Virus record (IMG/VR): IMGVR_UViG_3300003322_000414
Location: 6,855 to 70,854 of that record
DNA from: a virus
Strand: one strand, 5' to 3'
DNA length: 64,000 bases
Below the pieces are notes generated by a model that was not told the DNA's origin, searched no databases, and saw only the letters and a list, made by a program, of their open reading frames with translations. Position 1 is the stretch's first letter. Each line of letters starts with the position of its first letter. The position numbers and the translations under genes are program-made. Below are positions 4,862 to 44,105 of the stretch, one piece after another.

Positions 4862-7800
4862 GTGGCAATCCCCGAAGGAGTCGAGACAGTCACGATCAGC
4901 AGCTGCACGCCGCTGACGCTGCCCGACGGAACCCTCATCCGTGGCCACATCAGGTTCGTGGCCCCTGACCTCAACCTGATCGCGGACGAGGACTACATCT
5001 TCGGTGGTGAGTCTGCGGCTGAGCTCTGCCACGGCGAGTTCAGCATCACGCTGGTCCCACCGGACGCCACGGGCATCACGCCCACTGGCTGGACCTACAC
5101 CGCGATCGCCGAGTTCGTCAACGCGCCCGGATGGACGCGATACGTCGACATCACCAAGGACAACCCGACGGTGTGCTTCGACGACGTGATCGTCCTCACT
5201 CCTGGCGACGTCACCAACCCCGACACGACGTTCGTCCGCAAGGCGGGCGACACCATGACCGGAGCGCTCATCCTCTCCGGCGACCCGGTCGCTCCGCTCC
5301 AGGCGGTGACCAAGCAGTATGTGGACAACGCCTTCGACCCGGACCAGTTCGTAGAGATCACCGGCGACACCATGACCGGTCCGCTGGTCCTGTCGGGCGA
5401 TCCCTCGATTGCTCTTGGCGCTTCCACCAAGCAGTACACCGATGCACAGGCCGCAGCTGCACAGTCTGCAGCCGAAGCGACGGCAGCGGCCGAATCGGTC
5501 TCGTTGACCGGCGACACCATGACCGGTCTCCTCGTGCTCAGCGGGGATCCGGTCGCTGCACTCGGAGCGGCTCCCAAGCAGTACGTTGACCAGGCGGAGG
5601 CGGACGCCGTATCGTCCGCTACGGCCATCGCGGCGGCCGAGTCGGTCAGCCTCTCAGGCGACACGATGACAGGCCCGCTCGTTCTGAGCGGAGCCCCGGC
5701 AATCGGCAACGGAGCGGCGACGAAGGATTACGTCGACGCGCAGGCGGCTGCGGCACAGGCTGCGGCCGAGGCAACGGCGGCTGCGGAGAGCGTCTCCATC
5801 TCCGGTGACACGATGACCGGTGCACTGGTTCTGAACGCGGATCCGCTCGTTGCCCTGGGAGCCGCCACGAAGCAGTATGTGGACCAGGCTCAGGCCGACG
5901 CGGAAGCCAACGCCGCTGCCGAATCGGTGTCCATCGCTGGCGACACGATGACTGGACAGCTCGTTCTCTTCGGCGATCCCAACACCGCGCTCGGTGCCGC
6001 TCCCAAGCAGTATGTCGACGCGGGAGACGCGGCCACCCTCGCGGCGGCTGCTGCCGAGTCGGTGAGCCTGTCCGGCGACACCATGACGGGCGAGCTGGTG
6101 CTCTTCGGAGACCCGACCGTTGCCCTCGGAGCCACGCCGAAGCAGTACGTGGACGGCCTGGACTCGGAGAATGTCAAGCTGACCGGAGACCAGACGATCT
6201 CCGGAATCAAGACGTTCACCAGCATCCCGGTCGGACCCGCCTCCGATCCGGTCTCGAACGACCAGCTCACGCGCAAGTTCTACGTGGACGCGCTGGATGC
6301 CCAGAACGTGAAGCTCACTGGTGACCAGACGGTTGCTGGGATCAAGACCTTCTCCTCCATCCCCGTGCTCCCCGGCTCCGACCCGGTCGCCGCCAACGAG
6401 GCGGTCCGCAAGGCGTATGTGGACACGCTCGATGCACAGAACGTCAAGATCACCGGCAACCAGTCAATCGCCGGGCTGAAGACCTTCACGGACGCACTCG
6501 CCATCACGGACGGGTCCGACGTCAATCTGCTGACCGTCACGCAGACCAACGTGGCGGCGACGGCGGGCGTAATGAAGCTCGTGGCCGGTAACGCCGCGCA
6601 GCAGGCTTTCCTCGGCTCTTACCAGGGAGCGGCGGCCAACTCCTGGGCCATCCGGGCGGACGGCCGCTACGAGGCCGGAGACGGCACCGGAGCGCGGGAC
6701 ACGCTGCTGGCTCGCATCGCTGCTGGCGTCTGGCAGGCCACATCTCAGATCCGCGTCACTGGCTCGGCTCCCAGCAACGCGGCCGACCTGACGCGCAAGG
6801 ACTATGTCGACGGTCTCGACGCGCAGAACGTCAAGCTGACTGGCGACCAGTCCATCGGCGGGATCAAGACGTTCACGTCGTCGCCGATCGTGCCCGATCC
6901 GACCACCGATCAGCAGGCTGCCAGCAAGGCATACGTCGACACCGGAGACGACGCCCGCGTCGCTGTCGCCGGAGACACCATGACGGGTGCTCTCGTTCTG
7001 TACGGCGACCCGATGGCTCCGCTGGAGGCGGCCACACAGCAGTACGTGGACCAGCAGGCCGACGCAGCCCAGGCTGCTGCTGAAGCGACCGCAGCTGCAG
7101 AGTCCGTCTCGGTCACTGGCGACACGATGACGGGGCCGCTCGTCCTGTCCGGCGACCCGGCCACGGACCTCGAAGCCGCACCCAAGCAGTACGTGGACAA
7201 CACGATCGATGCGGAGCTGCTCGCACAGCTCGGACTCTCGACCGGCATCCTGCTCGGCGGCGAGCTCAACGTCAACGTTGGCGACGACACGATGGTCGAC
7301 ATCGGAGACACCTACGGCGTCGTCGTCGACTACGTGGACACGCCGACCGCTCCGACCGTGACCAAGGTGACGTTCGCTGCGACGACCGTGACCATCACCA
7401 ACCTGTCCGAGCCGATCACCTGGCTGCTCATCGACGACACGGGCACTCTCTCGCAGCAGACGACTCGGCCGACCAACACTCAGCGCAGGACGCACCTGGT
7501 CCTCGGCGGCGTCCTGGTCGCGGGTGGCGGCATCATCCAGGACCAGAGCCTGCCCAACTACCCGCCTCAGGCCCTGAACCAGCTGTACGACCTGATGGAC
7601 GCGCTCGGTCCGTTCAACGTCACCGGCAACCTGCTCACTCCTGCTGGTGCGAATCTGCAGCTTGCCAAGACTGCTGGCACCGTGTTCAACCGAGGCTTCA
7701 ACCACTTCGCCGGGGCAACGCTGACGCGGGATCCGCACATCTCGTCCACGGCCGCTCAGAACCCGGTCACGATGCGGTATGTGACGCAGGTTCCGGCTGC

Positions 7801-32278: not shown

Positions 32279-32848
32279 TCAGCCGAGGTCGTCCTCGTCG
32301 AAGTCGTCGTCCACGTCCGCGACCTTCTTGGCGGCGGGCTTGGCAGCGGCCGGACGGCGGCGACGGCGGGACACCGGCTTGGCGGCGGGCTCCTCGGCCT
32401 CCTCCGCCTCCTCGGCGACCGGCTCGGCCTTCTTCGCGGCGGCGGTGCTGGCACCCCGGCGACGGCGGCTGACCGGCTTCGCGGGCGGCTCCTCCGCCTC
32501 GTCCTCGTCGGCCTCGACCGGCGCGGCCTTCTTGGCCTTGGCCGCAGCCGCCTTCTTGGCCTTGGCCGCCTCCTCGTCCCGCTTCTTCTGCTCGCGAGCC
32601 TCCCGACGCGCCTCGCGCTCCTCCTCGGCCTTCTCGGCGGCGGCACGGCGCTCGGCGAGGTGCTCCTGGTTCTCGGGCGAGCGCTGGAAGTCCATGCGGA
32701 GCGCGGTGGCCAGCTGGACGGACTTGAGGTCCACGTCCTCGTAGCCGGTCTTCTCGACCAGCCAGTCGGCGAAGCGCTCGTGCAGCTCCGTCGGGTCCTT
32801 GTCGACGAGCTTCGTGTAGCGCTCGGTGTTCTCTTCGGCGTCAGCCAT
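32279..32848 (-). CDS. paralog family member 1 (PTELH..FADWL..DLK.VQL..RMDFQ.S.ENQ domain with K/A/E-rich tail)
   Basis: Shares a ~55-aa domain with 38576-39049 and 42098-42682; TATAGT upstream at 32885-32890. Confidence 0.75.
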   Translation of the reverse strand: MADAEENTERYTKLVDKDPTELHERFADWLVEKTGYEDVDLKSVQLATALRMDFQRSPENQEHLAERRAAAEKAEEEREARREAREQKKRDEEAAKAKKAAAAKAKKAAPVEADEDEAEEPPAKPVSRRRRGASTAAAKKAEPVAEEAEEAEEPAAKPVSRRRRRPAAAKPAAKKVADVDDDFDEDDLG

Positions 32849-38575: not shown

Positions 38576-39049
38576 TTACTTCTTGGCGGCGGTCCGACGC
38601 GTCCGGCGCACCGGCTGCTTCGGCTTGTCCTCCGCCTTGGGCTCGTCGGCGGCCTCGGTGGCCGTCTCCGCGCCGTTCTCGGCCTCCGCCTCACCCGTGG
38701 GCTCGGCCTCCGCCGTCGGGGCCTCGGCGGGCTCCTCGGGCTTCGGCTCGTCGGCGGCGGTCTCGCCCTTGAGCTTGGCGAGCTCCGCCTCCAGCTTGGC
38801 GAGCTTCCGGGCCTTGGCCTCTTCCGCCTTCTTGGCGGCCGCAGCCTTGCGCTCGGCGAGAGCCTTCTGGTTCTCCTCGGAGGACTGGAAGTCCATCCGC
38901 ATGATGGTAACGAGCTGGACCGTCTTCAGGTCGACGTCGACGCCCGTCTTCTCCTTGAGCCAGTCCGCGAACTGCTTGTGCAGCTCGGTGGGCTCGGCAG
39001 CCGCACGCTCAGCGAAGGTCTTCTTGCTGGGGGTGTTGTTCTCGGCCAT
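38576..39049 (-). CDS. paralog family member 2, flanked by hammerheads 3 and 2
   Basis: PTELHKQFADWLKEKTGVDVDLKTVQLVTIMRMDFQSSEENQ; AUG 39049 after CCAAGGAGG. Confidence 0.8.
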   Translation of the reverse strand: MAENNTPSKKTFAERAAAEPTELHKQFADWLKEKTGVDVDLKTVQLVTIMRMDFQSSEENQKALAERKAAAAKKAEEAKARKLAKLEAELAKLKGETAADEPKPEEPAEAPTAEAEPTGEAEAENGAETATEAADEPKAEDKPKQPVRRTRRTAAKK

Positions 39050-39065
39050 GGTGTTTCCTCCTTGG

Positions 39066-39129
39066 GGACTCATCGGCACCGGCATCCACCGGCGGACGAG
39101 CAGCGCTTCCCAGCGGGCTCGTTTCGTCC
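39066..39129 (-). ncRNA. type II hammerhead ribozyme HH3 (variant core CCGAUGA)
   Basis: RNA: GGAC GAAA CGAGC-(15 nt)-GCUCG UC^ CGCCGGU-GGAU-GCCGGUG CCGAUGA GUCC; cut 39095/39094. Confidence 0.8.
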
Positions 39130-39546
39130 TTGTTTGTTGCGTGCCGGCATCTCCTCCTTGCGGAGTGCGGTTGCCGGCAGACCGGCCGCCCTTTCGACTT
39201 CCTGGCCAGAGGGTGCTCATCGGAGTTTCTCACGTGACCCAGGCTTGAAGAGGACAGCTTCCGTCGCTCGCTAGCAGCTTTCAGTACCGCCCGGCTGTGT
39301 GCGCTTCCGACGCCCGCAGTGGGTGTCGGCTGCCCGTCCTCGGGAAGTCCAGTCGCTTCGCTCGCAACTACCGGTTTTGAGGAGTCCGGCTCCTGTCTAG
39401 AGTCAGCGGCCAGGACCGAAGTCCTGTGCGCGATCGCAGCCGTCTCTCTTGGCTGTCCTGCTCGGGTTCGCGGTCTTCGGGCGGAACCTCGACCCTCGGC
39501 CAGACCGGCCATCCGGGGAGTTCGTTCCTTGCCCTCGTCGCTTCCT
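39130..39546 (-). ncRNA. candidate structured non-coding RNA B (unrecognised), paralog of RNA A
   Basis: Lies between a promoter (39554-39583) and HH3; 59/74 identity with 43338-43411 including a 1-nt indel; no RBS-led ORF. Confidence 0.65.
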
Positions 39547-39553
39547 GAGTAGA

Positions 39554-39583: not shown

Positions 39584-39730
39584 AACCCATCTACCTGGGC
39601 ATTCACCGCGTTTGCGCAGGTAGAAGCATGTGCGAACTTCCCAAAACTTTTTCTGACAATTTTCGAACCCTGAGGCCGGCATGAGTGCGACGCGTATCGG
39701 TGTCATGCCGGCCTCTCAGGGCGAATCGGG

Positions 39731-42097: not shown

Positions 42098-42682
42098 TTA
42101 GCTGTCCAGCGCGGGGCAGCAGGGCTTCAGGTCGTAGCCCATGTAGTTGTCCTCCAGGCTGCTCTCACCCGAGTCGATCATGTCGCTGTAGATCAGGCGG
42201 GTCAGCTCGGTGTGGCTCCGGACCTCGGCGGTCTCCTTGGTGAAGCCCTTGGCGCGGGTGAACTTCTTGAGGTCGTTGCAGCCGAACTTGTGGACCTCGG
42301 GCTCGCCGTTGCCGTACAGGACCGTCAGCTTCTGGACCGGACCCGGCTCCTCGGTCTTGGCCTCCTCGACCGGCTCAGCCGTCTCGGTCTTGGCCTCGCC
42401 CTTGATCTCGGCGAGCATCTTCTCCAGCTTGGCCTTCTTGCGCTCGGCCGACGCCTTCTTGGCCGCCGCCGCCTTGGCCTTGCGCTCGGCCAGCGCCTGC
42501 TGGTTCTCGGGGCTCGCCTGGAAGTCGTGGCGCAGGACCGTCACCAGCTGAACCGTCTTCAGGTCAACCCGGACGCCGGTCTGGACGTACAGCCACTGGG
42601 CGAAGTCCTCGTGGAGCTGGGTCGGAGCCTTGGCGGCGATCGCCTCGTAGTTCTTCGGGGTCTTGTTCTCGTTGCGGGCCAT
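42098..42682 (-). CDS. paralog family member 3, with an additional C-terminal domain
   Basis: PTQLHEDFAQWLYVQTGVRVDLKTVQLVTVLRHDFQASPENQ; own promoter and CCAAGGAGG RBS. Confidence 0.8.
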   Translation of the reverse strand: MARNENKTPKNYEAIAAKAPTQLHEDFAQWLYVQTGVRVDLKTVQLVTVLRHDFQASPENQQALAERKAKAAAAKKASAERKKAKLEKMLAEIKGEAKTETAEPVEEAKTEEPGPVQKLTVLYGNGEPEVHKFGCNDLKKFTRAKGFTKETAEVRSHTELTRLIYSDMIDSGESSLEDNYMGYDLKPCCPALDS

Positions 42683-42727
42683 GGGGTCCTCCTTGGGGAC
42701 TCTCGTTCGGTCGGCCTTACAGTAACT

Positions 42728-42757
42728 ACTATACTCCATGTGCAGCCGTTTCGCTAC
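42728..42757 (-). promoter_or_regulatory. repeated early promoter GTAGCG-N18-TATAGT
   Basis: Exact motif and spacing, repeated seven times in 42.7-47 kb. Confidence 0.8.
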
Positions 42758-42821
42758 TCTGGAGTGCAACTTGTTTGCCGGCAAGCCGGGGGAGCTGGGG
42801 GCTCCCCCGGTGCCGTCGTGC

Positions 42822-43013
42822 TTACCGCTGGATCTCGTCCGGACCAGGCGTGCCGAGCGGGTTCTCGACCTGGATCAGGTCGCGCCCGTCGGACTCGGTC
42901 GGGAGCGGCCGGTCCACGATCGGACCGGACGCACCGCCCGTGTTGGACTGTCCCTTGGGGCCGGTTCCGTTCGGCGGGTTGCTCGCCTGCGGGGTCCGCT
43001 TGGGCAGTGCCAT
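42822..43013 (-). CDS. small P/G-rich protein below hammerhead 6
   Basis: AUG after CCAAGGAGG. Confidence 0.6.
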   Translation of the reverse strand: MALPKRTPQASNPPNGTGPKGQSNTGGASGPIVDRPLPTESDGRDLIQVENPLGTPGPDEIQR

Positions 43014-43031
43014 GGTGGTTCCTCCTTGGTG

Positions 43032-43102
43032 AGGCTCCTCAGGAGCGCCGTTCAGCGCCCGACCTGCAAGCCGGCATGTGATCCGACCTGCAGGTTTCGC
43101 CT
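43032..43102 (-). ncRNA. type II hammerhead ribozyme HH6
   Basis: RNA: AGGC GAAA CCUGCAGGUCGG-AUCACAUG-CCGGCUUGCAGG UC^ GGGCGCU-GAAC-GGCGCUC CUGAGGA GCCU; stem II covaries (GGAC/GUCC to AGGC/GCCU); cut 43061/43060. Confidence 0.9.
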
Positions 43103-43434
43103 TGATTGTGTTGCGCAGGCGTCGGTGGGACCTACCATCCGCTCCGCCTGCTCGCTCCGCCCTCGCGCCTTGCCAACCTCTCGGATGTTCTCTCGTGGGG
43201 TGGCTGGTTCCGTGTCTCCCTAGCCAGTCCCGCGTCCGTCCCCGAGGAGTTGCGCGCTACTACCTTCGCTGCCGTTTTCTTGTGGAGGGTCGGTGCCCTG
43301 TCTCCGACGCTGCATTTGCTGCTACCGACCTGTCGCCTGGCCGCCTTGCTCGGTGTTCGCGTTCTTCGGGTGGAGCCTCGACCGTCGGCTGGAGTCGCCG
43401 TCCCGGGAGTTTCGCTCGCCGCCCTCTCGCTTAC
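43103..43434 (-). ncRNA. candidate structured non-coding RNA A (unrecognised), paralog of RNA B
   Basis: Lies between promoter 43442-43471 and HH6; no - strand ORF with a start codon; homologous to 39450-39522. Confidence 0.65.
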
Positions 43435-43441
43435 AGGTAGA

Positions 43442-43471
43442 ACTTTACTCCAAGTCGCACACCTCCGCTAC
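43442..43471 (-). promoter_or_regulatory. early promoter GTAGCG-N18-TAAAGT driving RNA A
   Basis: Exact motif match. Confidence 0.8.
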
Positions 43472-43700
43472 CCTCAGCCCACCTGGTCATTCACCGTAAA
43501 CCCTCAGGTAGTTGAGCCGGCAACTTCTTCCAAGATTTTTTCAGAATTCTTAAAGCCTGAGGCCGGCATGAGTCTGGCCCGGCGCGTCGCTACGTGGCCG
43601 TCTGCGGGCCTCTCGCGGGCGAGCGCGCCCAGTTGGGCCGGTCGGGGCTGCGCGCCACGGAGACGACCAGCGAGCCACGCGCACGACCCCAGAACGCAGC

Positions 43701-43733
43701 GGAGCCCCGCTCCCTTGTCAGGGGCGGGGCTCC
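43701..43733. terminator. GC-rich hairpin terminator
   Basis: 13-bp stem just after the 43746 stop. Confidence 0.55.
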
Positions 43734-43745
43734 GGGTTGGGCCGG

Positions 43746-44105
43746 TCAGTCGCGGCAGCGAGCCAGCGCCCGGTAGGCCGCCTGCATCGCCTTGCGCTCG
43801 TAGGCCTCGCGGGTGTTCTGGATGGCGGAGGTGGAGCCGCCGACGTTGCCCTCGATCAGGGCCTCGGCCGCGTCCTCCAGCCACTCCTCGATGGCGCGCA
43901 TGCCGGCACGGTTCCAGCGGGTCTGGAGCTTGGCGGTCAGGTCGGCGTTGGCCTGCGCCTCCAGCAGGTTCTCCAGCGTCCCCGGCAGGACCAGCTCGCC
44001 AGCCGCGAAGGAGGCGGTGATCCGGCTCTGGACGGTCAGCAGGGTCTGCGCGGCGGACTGGGCGATGCGCTCGACGGTGGCGGCGGTACGCTCGGAGTTC
44101 ATCAT
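43746..44105 (-). CDS. early hypothetical protein
   Basis: Own promoter and CCAAGGAGG RBS. Confidence 0.75.
   Translation of the reverse strand: MMNSERTAATVERIAQSAAQTLLTVQSRITASFAAGELVLPGTLENLLEAQANADLTAKLQTRWNRAGMRAIEEWLEDAAEALIEGNVGGSTSAIQNTREAYERKAMQAAYRALARCRD

Follow-up and report, generated by a model that had tools for sequence, protein, structure and literature searches.

A candidate structured RNA family ahead of a predicted hammerhead ribozyme in a Streptomyces phage

What is made from a stretch of phage DNA that begins at a consensus promoter, carries no recognisable gene and ends at a self-cleaving ribozyme motif? This question is raised by the minus strand around positions 43061-43436 of a 64,000-nucleotide (nt) stretch, here called the window, which covers positions 6,855 to 70,854 of the IMG/VR record IMGVR_UViG_3300003322_000414, a 74.5-kb viral contig. 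An earlier note on the window had proposed that the locus encodes an unrecognised non-coding RNA, RNA A, bounded by the promoter at its 5' end and by a hammerhead, HH6, at its 3' end and related to a second RNA, RNA B. The best explanation as a whole, to which we give a probability of about 0.6, is that RNA A belongs to a structured non-coding RNA family that would be released by the hammerhead and act in trans on a conserved partner. Large structured RNAs without an assigned function are rare and have repeatedly opened new biology; in this case the newness belongs to RNA A, while the hammerhead adds a new member to a known kind.

Promoter, boundaries and non-coding character of RNA A

A 901-nt query around RNA A matches nine Streptomyces phages in GenBank at 82-87% identity (Lizz, PHTowN, ShakeNBake, Gibson, Rooney, phiRKBJ001, Wentworth, Dryad and Yara), and on this evidence from sequence the region is part of a Streptomyces phage whose relatives make up cluster BN. 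Cluster BN phages have been described as lytic siphoviruses with circularly permuted genomes of about 69 kb and without transfer RNAs (PMC8852317). The elements that define the 5' side of the locus are the following, with RNA A nt i corresponding to window position 43437-i.

43061-43436, minus strand: RNA A, about 375 nt, from a probable start at 43434-43436 to the predicted hammerhead cut after C43061
43442-43471, minus strand: promoter GTAGCG-N18-TAAAGT, the consensus motif before RNA A
43479-43489, minus strand: upstream motif TGACCAGGTGG, about 8 nt before the -35 box, conserved before both RNA types in relatives

The promoter GTAGCG-N18-TAAAGT is present where the earlier note had placed it, and the looser motif GTAGCG-N16-20-TANAGT occurs 8 times in the window against 0.02 expected. 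The six other minus-strand copies lead to genes, with a CCCCAAGGAGG-type ribosome-binding site (RBS) and a start codon 38-54 nt past the -10 box; behind the RNA A promoter, neither an RBS nor a start codon occurs within 90 nt of the -10 box. The start of RNA A is placed at about 43434-43436 from the promoter geometry and from the point at which conservation begins, namely at CUGUAAGCGA, directly after the -10 box. In most relatives in GenBank a TTGCCT-N18-CATAGT or CATGAT promoter occupies the same place, and the CUGUAAGCGA start lies at an unchanged distance from the -10 box. The GTAGCG-N18-TAAAGT form before RNA A is found here and at loci L011 and L014; it differs from the promoters at L001, L002 and L005-L009, and the break falls exactly at the RNA start. 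RNA A thus has the appearance of a modular gene in which the promoter type has been swapped among phages and the RNA start has stayed fixed. Upstream of the promoter, exact matches to TGMCCAGGTRG occur in the 64-kb window only at 43479-43489 and 39591-39601 on the minus strand, ahead of the RNA A and RNA B promoters, and this motif may be a regulator site common to both RNA genes.

RNA A has none of the marks of a protein gene, that is, an RBS with a start codon, codon-phase composition or a kept frame. The content of guanine and cytosine (GC) by codon phase is flat, at 0.71/0.69/0.59 in RNA A and 0.65/0.63/0.66 in RNA B, whereas in neighbouring open reading frames (ORFs) codon position 3 has 0.89-0.97 and position 2 has 0.39-0.57. 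Within sequence that is otherwise 95-100% conserved, some phages have a 2-nt insertion (AC after nt 10) or a 1-nt insertion (T near nt 164), and therefore no frame is shared on either strand. The only minus-strand ORF of at least 30 amino acids is a 31-codon ATG ORF at 43315-43220, which has no RBS, begins in a hairpin loop and is not kept in homologues. It could still be argued that a protein gene with an unusual start, or one on the plus strand, has been missed, or that the stretch is a decaying pseudogene: stop-free frames of 100-114 codons run through both strands in all homologues, and plus-strand ORFs are listed at 43078-43440 and 43106-44020. Such frames are expected by chance because the sense strand is only 8% U; translations of both RNA A strands match nothing in Pfam or PHROGs, the substitutions fall as compensatory pairs, and an identity of 94%, above that of nearby real genes, is not that of a decaying sequence, so this explanation is near refuted. 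Taken with the flat codon phase, the frame-breaking indels and the missing RBS and start codon, these results bear out the view of the locus as a non-coding RNA. The depositors' annotation is in agreement, as both the RNA A gap (560-860 bp) and the RNA B gap are left empty in 7/7 related GenBank phages inspected, and gene calls on more distant environmental contigs likewise leave the gaps at the RNA sites empty.

Meanwhile, the mean pairwise identity among seven phages is 94.3% for RNA A nt 1-285, 62% for the variable hairpin and linker behind it and 78% for the hammerhead, compared with 72% for the 63-codon ORF that follows and 82% for the ORF after that. Even where the neighbouring protein has only about 50% identity to that in the window, the first 180 nt score 159-188 bits with a model built from close relatives. 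Selection thus acts on RNA A as an RNA, and more strongly than on the flanking genes.

Family and fold of RNA A

Searches against known RNA families, among them RNase P, SRP and the riboswitches, returned nothing for RNA A in Rfam 15, and the earlier note had likewise seen no match by eye to tRNA, tmRNA, RNase P, 6S or intron motifs: there were no matches in the window at the gathering threshold, and for RNA A alone at E<=10 only a 15-bit chance match to CC3552. ARAGORN found no genes for transfer or transfer-messenger RNA in the window, and no report of hammerheads or structured RNAs in cluster BN phages was found in the literature. By comparison with Rfam 15, RNA A may therefore be regarded as a candidate for a previously undescribed RNA family of cluster BN Streptomyces phages and soil phages related to them, although the family may be listed unnamed among the more than 10,000 phage RNA candidates catalogued elsewhere (PMC10690425).

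Within the window, the family has a second member.

39067-39547, minus strand: RNA B, with its own promoter and hammerhead HH3 (covariance model R1: 69 bits, E 2e-19)

The claimed homology of the 5' part of RNA A to RNA B was recovered, with 77% identity over 117 nt between 43452-43338 and 39564-39450, and the covariance model extends it to about 165-180 nt; model R1 scores RNA A at 220 bits and RNA B at 69 bits, which places both in the proposed family. The two RNAs have in common a 5' domain, hairpin P2, a pseudoknot and hairpin P4. A total of 45 family copies (41 distinct) were collected from GenBank phages, IMG/VR and assemblies of metagenomes and sequencing runs, after chance matches of the loose DNA pattern in coding DNA had been excluded (14 metagenome loci by inspection and 6 viral loci without covariance-model support). 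Phage genomes covered at both sites carry two copies each, one A-like and one B-like, and some contigs add a third variant.

The third RNA type (L039:3921-4107, L048:8312-8498 and L050:6990-7176) has a replacement of about 26 nt in the 5' hairpin, with P1b formed by GGAAGC/GCUUCC, and joins this altered hairpin to a Yara-like pseudoknot CAAG/CUUG. The RNA domains recombine, since L033 and L039:7170-7348 are natural A/B hybrids. In addition, model R2 detects a second copy of the 3' domain in Yara (L008:1170-1335), in an unannotated gap far from the A-type RNA, so that Yara probably has two RNA genes, as far as can be judged from its sequence.

The fold of RNA A is made up of the following elements.

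43359-43430 (nt 7-78), minus strand: 5' domain, a long irregular hairpin of stacked helices, from covariation
43326-43343 (nt 94-111), minus strand: P2 hairpin, stem 1 of the pseudoknot, from stem variants
43305-43335, minus strand: H-type pseudoknot, in which the P2 loop CGAC (43335-43332) pairs with GUCG (43308-43305)
43322-43312, minus strand: P3, a small hairpin variable in sequence and length, between the pseudoknot partners
43286-43299 (nt 138-151), minus strand: P4 hairpin, followed by the conserved A-rich linker CCACAAGAAAAC (43285-43274)
43154-43269 (nt 168-283), minus strand: 3' domain, a 116-nt irregular hairpin, from covariation and minimum free energy (MFE)
43115-43151 (nt 286-322), minus strand: variable hairpin, then an A/C-rich linker; unrelated hairpins replace the hairpin in some phages

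The earlier note had named a lack of significant covariation among homologues as one result that would refute it; covariation was found, the helices and the pseudoknot lying well above shuffled and slid controls. In the 5' domain, 97.5% of cells are paired across 32 distinct copies aligned by model R1, a share that falls to 25-45% on sliding the 3' partners by 1-3 columns, and five pairs have changed on both sides, for instance G-C in A types to C-G or A-U in B types. The P2 stem occurs as CGGCC/GGUCG, CAGCC/GGCUG and GGGCC/GGUCC, all fully paired. The pseudoknot is found in six variants (CGAC/GUCG, AGAG/CUCU, CAAG/CUUG, CGAG/CUCG, CGGA/UCCG and CAAC/GUUG); in a fixed-anchor parse it is fully complementary in 40/40 distinct parsable copies and in 0/40 when the partner is slid by 1-2 nt. 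An intramolecular H-type pseudoknot is favoured because the loop lengths of 3, 1 and at least 17 nt fit this geometry. In P4, A-U has changed to U-A in three A-type lineages, and B types carry AGGAG/CUCCU. Over the whole 5' half, 99.1% of cells are paired in 18 A-type sequences, and six pairs have changed on both sides, against 1.2 in shuffles (reached in 0/500) and 0-2 when slid.

The 3' domain behaves in the same way. In 17 A-type sequences, nine pairs have changed on both sides against 2.9 in shuffles (0/500) and 0-2 when slid; in 26 distinct copies aligned by model R2, 24/36 pairs have done so, against 12.9 shuffled (0/500) and 5-13 slid, and the covariation score of these copies is 0.269, compared with 0.089 shuffled and 0.03-0.06 slid. 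The same helices are given by RNAalifold and by single-sequence MFE. The internal loop GACGGA (43240-43235) opposite AGAGAACA (43193-43186) does not vary among the aligned A-type sequences, not even in L024, the most divergent of them. The stem of the variable hairpin at nt 286-322 covaries where it can be aligned. The fold can be assigned to the transcribed strand because it contains conserved G-U pairs, such as that of P2 in all A types; read from the opposite strand, these would become mismatches of A with C. It is thus supported, from comparison of sequences, that RNA A is a structured RNA of three domains, namely a 5' hairpin, a pseudoknot domain and a 3' hairpin; among the roles suggested earlier, a large structured RNA is the one that the covariation and the lack of a known-family match back.

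The alignments were made domain by domain. A full 20-sequence RNAalifold run was poor in the 3' half, where Yara and L039 cannot be aligned, and ribosum scoring led to an implausible global fold; MAFFT misaligned the B types at P1b, P2 and the pseudoknot, for which covariance-model alignments and the anchor-based parse were used instead. Two further pairings were tried and rejected. A tertiary contact of the P1 loop (CUCC) with GGAG beside the pseudoknot fails in the natural A/B hybrid L039, which has no partner; pairing of CUCCUCGGGG in RNA A with the common CCCCAAGGAGG leaders fails in Rooney, which changes the segment to CUCUCCGGGG together with its partner inside RNA A. A search for antisense targets of RNA A gave no significant BLAST match within the window.

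The hammerhead and the proposed release of RNA A

43101-43033, minus strand: type II hammerhead HH6, with the predicted cut between C43061 and G43060
43013-42822, minus strand: 63-codon ORF with RBS AAGGAGG (43027-43021), on the predicted 3' cleavage product, directly after HH6

HH6 has the full type II order of GGC, GAAA, a 34-nt stem III hairpin closed by A-U, GUC, an 18-nt stem I hairpin, CUGAGGA and GCC. Its core elements CUGAGGA, GAAA and GUC are all in place, and H17 is C at 43061, the very position at which the earlier note had set the 3' end of RNA A. The ribozyme is found at the 3' end of the RNA in every homologue, where it is joined to the RBS of the gene that follows, since a hammerhead ends 21/21 distinct full-length family units, counting those with enough downstream sequence. 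Among these 21 hammerheads, stem I pairs canonically at 7/7 positions in all, three of which alternate between GC and CG; the 3/3 positions of stem II are likewise canonical, as AU, GC or GU pairs; stem III occurs as at least five unrelated sequences; and H17 is C in 17 and A in 4. Six hammerheads lie within 5.5 kb of one strand in the window.

The hammerhead of RNA B (39061-39129, minus strand; also L005, L006, L007 and L020) has C for U at core position 4, giving CCGAUGA or CCGAAGA. This variant is present in 5/21 distinct family hammerheads from several phages, and the B-type copy L010 has the normal CUGAGGA; conservation of the variant suggests, from sequence, tuned or slow cleavage rather than decay.

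On the reading preferred here, HH6 would cut after C43061. The released RNA A would then finish with the stem III hairpin and bear a 2',3'-cyclic phosphate at its 3' terminus, while the stem I hairpin would stay with the downstream mRNA, which would begin with a 5'-OH. Freed RNA A would then act in trans by binding a highly conserved partner, for which a host machine is likelier than a phage protein; the 5' and pseudoknot module that the RNAs share would serve as a common platform for binding, with the 3' domain as a second, exchangeable module. Action in trans is proposed because unpaired nucleotides of RNA A are near-invariant across phages of several Streptomyces hosts, which suggests contact with a conserved partner, and because the downstream gene varies and an unstructured linker and the ribozyme separate RNA A from the mRNA. 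If the cleavage is true, the hammerhead would be used to make the 3' end of a non-coding RNA and the 5' end of the next mRNA at once; we know of no earlier report of such a use.

A more specific form of this proposal, in which RNA A and RNA B would seize a universal host machine early in infection, is rather improbable as it stands. In its polymerase version, the bubble-bearing 3' hairpin would trap the host RNA polymerase holoenzyme and so shift transcription to the phage GTAGCG-type promoters; in its ribonucleoprotein version, which shares the same low standing, the RNAs would be subunits of a new ribonucleoprotein together with the adjacent Lys/Ala-tailed PHROG 20596/34140 proteins described below. 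Either version, if true, would make RNA A a new class of trans-acting viral RNA with a ribozyme-made 3' end.

Several points weigh against the preferred reading. The Rfam model Hammerhead_II (RF02276) gives no match to HH6 even at E<=10 in the 426 nt searched, and HH3 and HH5 reach 23-24 bits against a gathering threshold of 37; HH6 differs from the model by its 34-nt stem III and by a stem I loop UGAACG where the model has UGG. Because the Rfam score is below threshold or absent, the assignment of HH6 is based on its core and on stem covariation. The MFE of RNA A is no better than that of shuffled sequences (z of +0.40 for the whole RNA and -0.21 for the 3' domain, with +0.33 for the opposite strand), and the z-scores are not used as support. 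Sequence diversity is low, with an effective sequence number of 1.0-1.3, so that many covarying cells are inherited and are not independent events; moreover, in two of the alignments a covariance model had fitted the sequences to the very structure under test. Less confidence attaches to the trans-acting step, and to any binding partner, which we infer. RNA A sequence does occur in contigs of RNA libraries from several studies: among four RNA-library runs compared over 14 kb, two have no long phage piece other than RNA A, namely X19, which covers 43154-43320 at 100% identity, and X20, which covers 43118-43452. In other runs, however, X18 extends beyond the presumed start, to 43469, and X16 (42673-43289) spans the predicted cleavage site, which may be DNA carry-over or read-through, and the presence of RNA A in these runs is biased evidence, as they were picked with RNA A as the query. 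Since the runs were selected in this way and DNA is possibly present in them, no conclusion on ends, abundance or timing is drawn from the RNA libraries.

The same locus could be read as a cis-acting leader, either an antiterminator that modifies the transcribing polymerase and so lets it read past downstream hairpins, as HK022 put RNA does, or a riboswitch-like sensor of a ligand, with the hammerhead trimming afterwards. RNA A lies at the very 5' end of its transcription unit, with conservation from +1; there are two copies per genome, each heading a gene block, recalling putL and putR of phage HK022; downstream of the 63-codon ORF lies a hairpin resembling a terminator (42811-42769); and contact with a ligand or with polymerase would be a fitting role for the conserved internal loops and the pseudoknot. 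The put RNAs of HK022 are about 70 nt long, fold into two stem-loops and must stay tethered to the polymerase. RNA A is like them in being folded, near +1 of transcripts that would be early, and present in two copies; unlike them, it is four times larger, contains a pseudoknot and is followed by a predicted self-cleaving ribozyme, which, placed right behind, would cut the tether that a put RNA needs. Its conserved core of about 285 nt is far above the size of known antiterminator RNAs, a variable hairpin and an unstructured linker stand between this core and the hammerhead and RBS, no alternative pairing of RNA A with either of the latter is seen that could serve as an expression platform, no riboswitch family matches in Rfam, and the downstream genes differ among phages. 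On balance, a cis-acting leader seems unlikely.

Still less can be said for the idea that the stretch acts at the level of DNA or an R-loop, as a transcription-activated replication origin or a primer RNA comparable to ColE1 RNA II or the RNA-based origins of some mycobacteriophage prophages. The transcript is non-coding, rich in purines (62%) and driven by a strong promoter; an A+T-rich stretch, unusual in a genome of 64-68% GC, lies just upstream of the promoters of both RNA A and RNA B; replication genes lie downstream of RNA A on the same strand; and actinophages are known in which non-coding RNAs are required for prophage replication (PMC7157519). Against this, the 2',3'-cyclic phosphate made by a hammerhead is not extendable by a polymerase; the compensatory changes, the G-U pairs and the pseudoknot are signs of a folded free RNA; it would be odd for an origin to be present in two or three diverged copies per genome; the strand composition differs little from that of the rest of the arm; and the BN phages, according to their published description (PMC8852317), are lytic with circularly permuted genomes. 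An origin or primer is accordingly a very improbable explanation, and release of a trans-acting structured RNA remains the preferred one.

Comparison with known systems and genomic setting

Arrays of type II hammerheads have been reported to lie between the genes of phages and prophages (Perreault et al. 2011, PMC3088659). HH6 resembles these in its type II order, conserved core and three covarying stems and in its place just before a start codon; unlike them, the piece upstream of its cut is a conserved structured RNA and not mRNA, so that the ribozyme would set the 3' end of a non-coding RNA. GOLLD, ROOL and other orphan "ornate" RNAs (PMC12286853) are, like RNA A, phage-borne, multi-domain, backed by covariation and highly conserved. 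In contrast to GOLLD and ROOL, RNA A has no Rfam match, is much smaller (a core of about 285 nt), is restricted to one group of Streptomyces phages, and has its own promoter and a predicted ribozyme-made end.

The 6S RNA and its actinobacterial counterpart Ms1 are similar in size, and the 3' domain of RNA A is a long irregular hairpin with a conserved bubble, loosely like an open promoter. We take this resemblance to polymerase decoys as a lead and not as a finding. Unlike in 6S RNA, the bubble of RNA A is only 6 nt opposite 8 nt, and a 5' hairpin domain and a pseudoknot are added; in a check for a 6S-like fold, only the 3' domain was rod-like, with its 6/8-nt internal loop, the whole RNA having three domains and a pseudoknot, and Rfam gave no 6S match. 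The pRNA of phi29, which is transcribed early, is like RNA A a phage-encoded structured RNA with a 4-bp loop pairing backed by covariation; the loop lengths of RNA A fit an intramolecular pseudoknot instead, RNA A is not linked to packaging genes, and the two belong to different types of phage. RNA anti-CRISPRs and pseudo-ToxI (PMC10651486, PMC3475682) belong to the small non-coding RNAs with which phages act in trans as mimics; RNA A may act in trans too. They mimic short host repeats, whereas RNA A has no repeat structure; when its conserved, degenerate 27-nt core motif was searched for in representative genomes of 185,579 prokaryotic species, no exact match turned up.

Three covarying domains and a pseudoknot make RNA A well defined; selection on it exceeds that on the surrounding genes, each genome of the phage group has it in duplicate, and its occurrence in cultivable lytic Streptomyces phages makes it amenable to deletion, mutation and pull-down by ordinary methods.

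As for the genes that follow, the 63-codon ORF has GC of 0.89 at codon position 3, typical of genes in the window; it is annotated as a hypothetical protein in relatives and has no match in Pfam or PHROGs. Between it and the next promoter lies a GC-rich hairpin, CCGGGGGAGC...GCUCCCCCGG, without a U-run (42769-42811, minus strand), at which the RNA A unit probably terminates; the one Rfam match there, to Corio-PBP on the opposite (plus) strand, is at chance level. The gene after the hammerhead varies, being the 63-codon ORF after RNA A here and a PHROG 20596/34140-type gene after RNA B and in Yara, where the gene after the RNA shares N-terminal sequence with the one following RNA B. Three paralogous PHROG 20596/34140 proteins with basic, Lys/Ala-rich tails are encoded on the minus strand of the window, at 38576-39049, 42098-42682 and 32279-32848; one of these genes lies directly after RNA B and HH3, and one a single gene after RNA A. 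Homologues of this neighbour are also encoded in small Streptomyces integrative elements, beside Prim-Pol, D5_N, HNH and integrase genes, and the RNA is absent from two such elements that encode a homologue of the neighbouring protein.

Sequence near-identical to 42800-43700 (0.76-0.81 of sampled 31-mers) was found in soil and root metagenome runs from at least nine studies, with RNA libraries from four; because it recurs in so many soil and root runs, BN-like phages are apparently common in soil.

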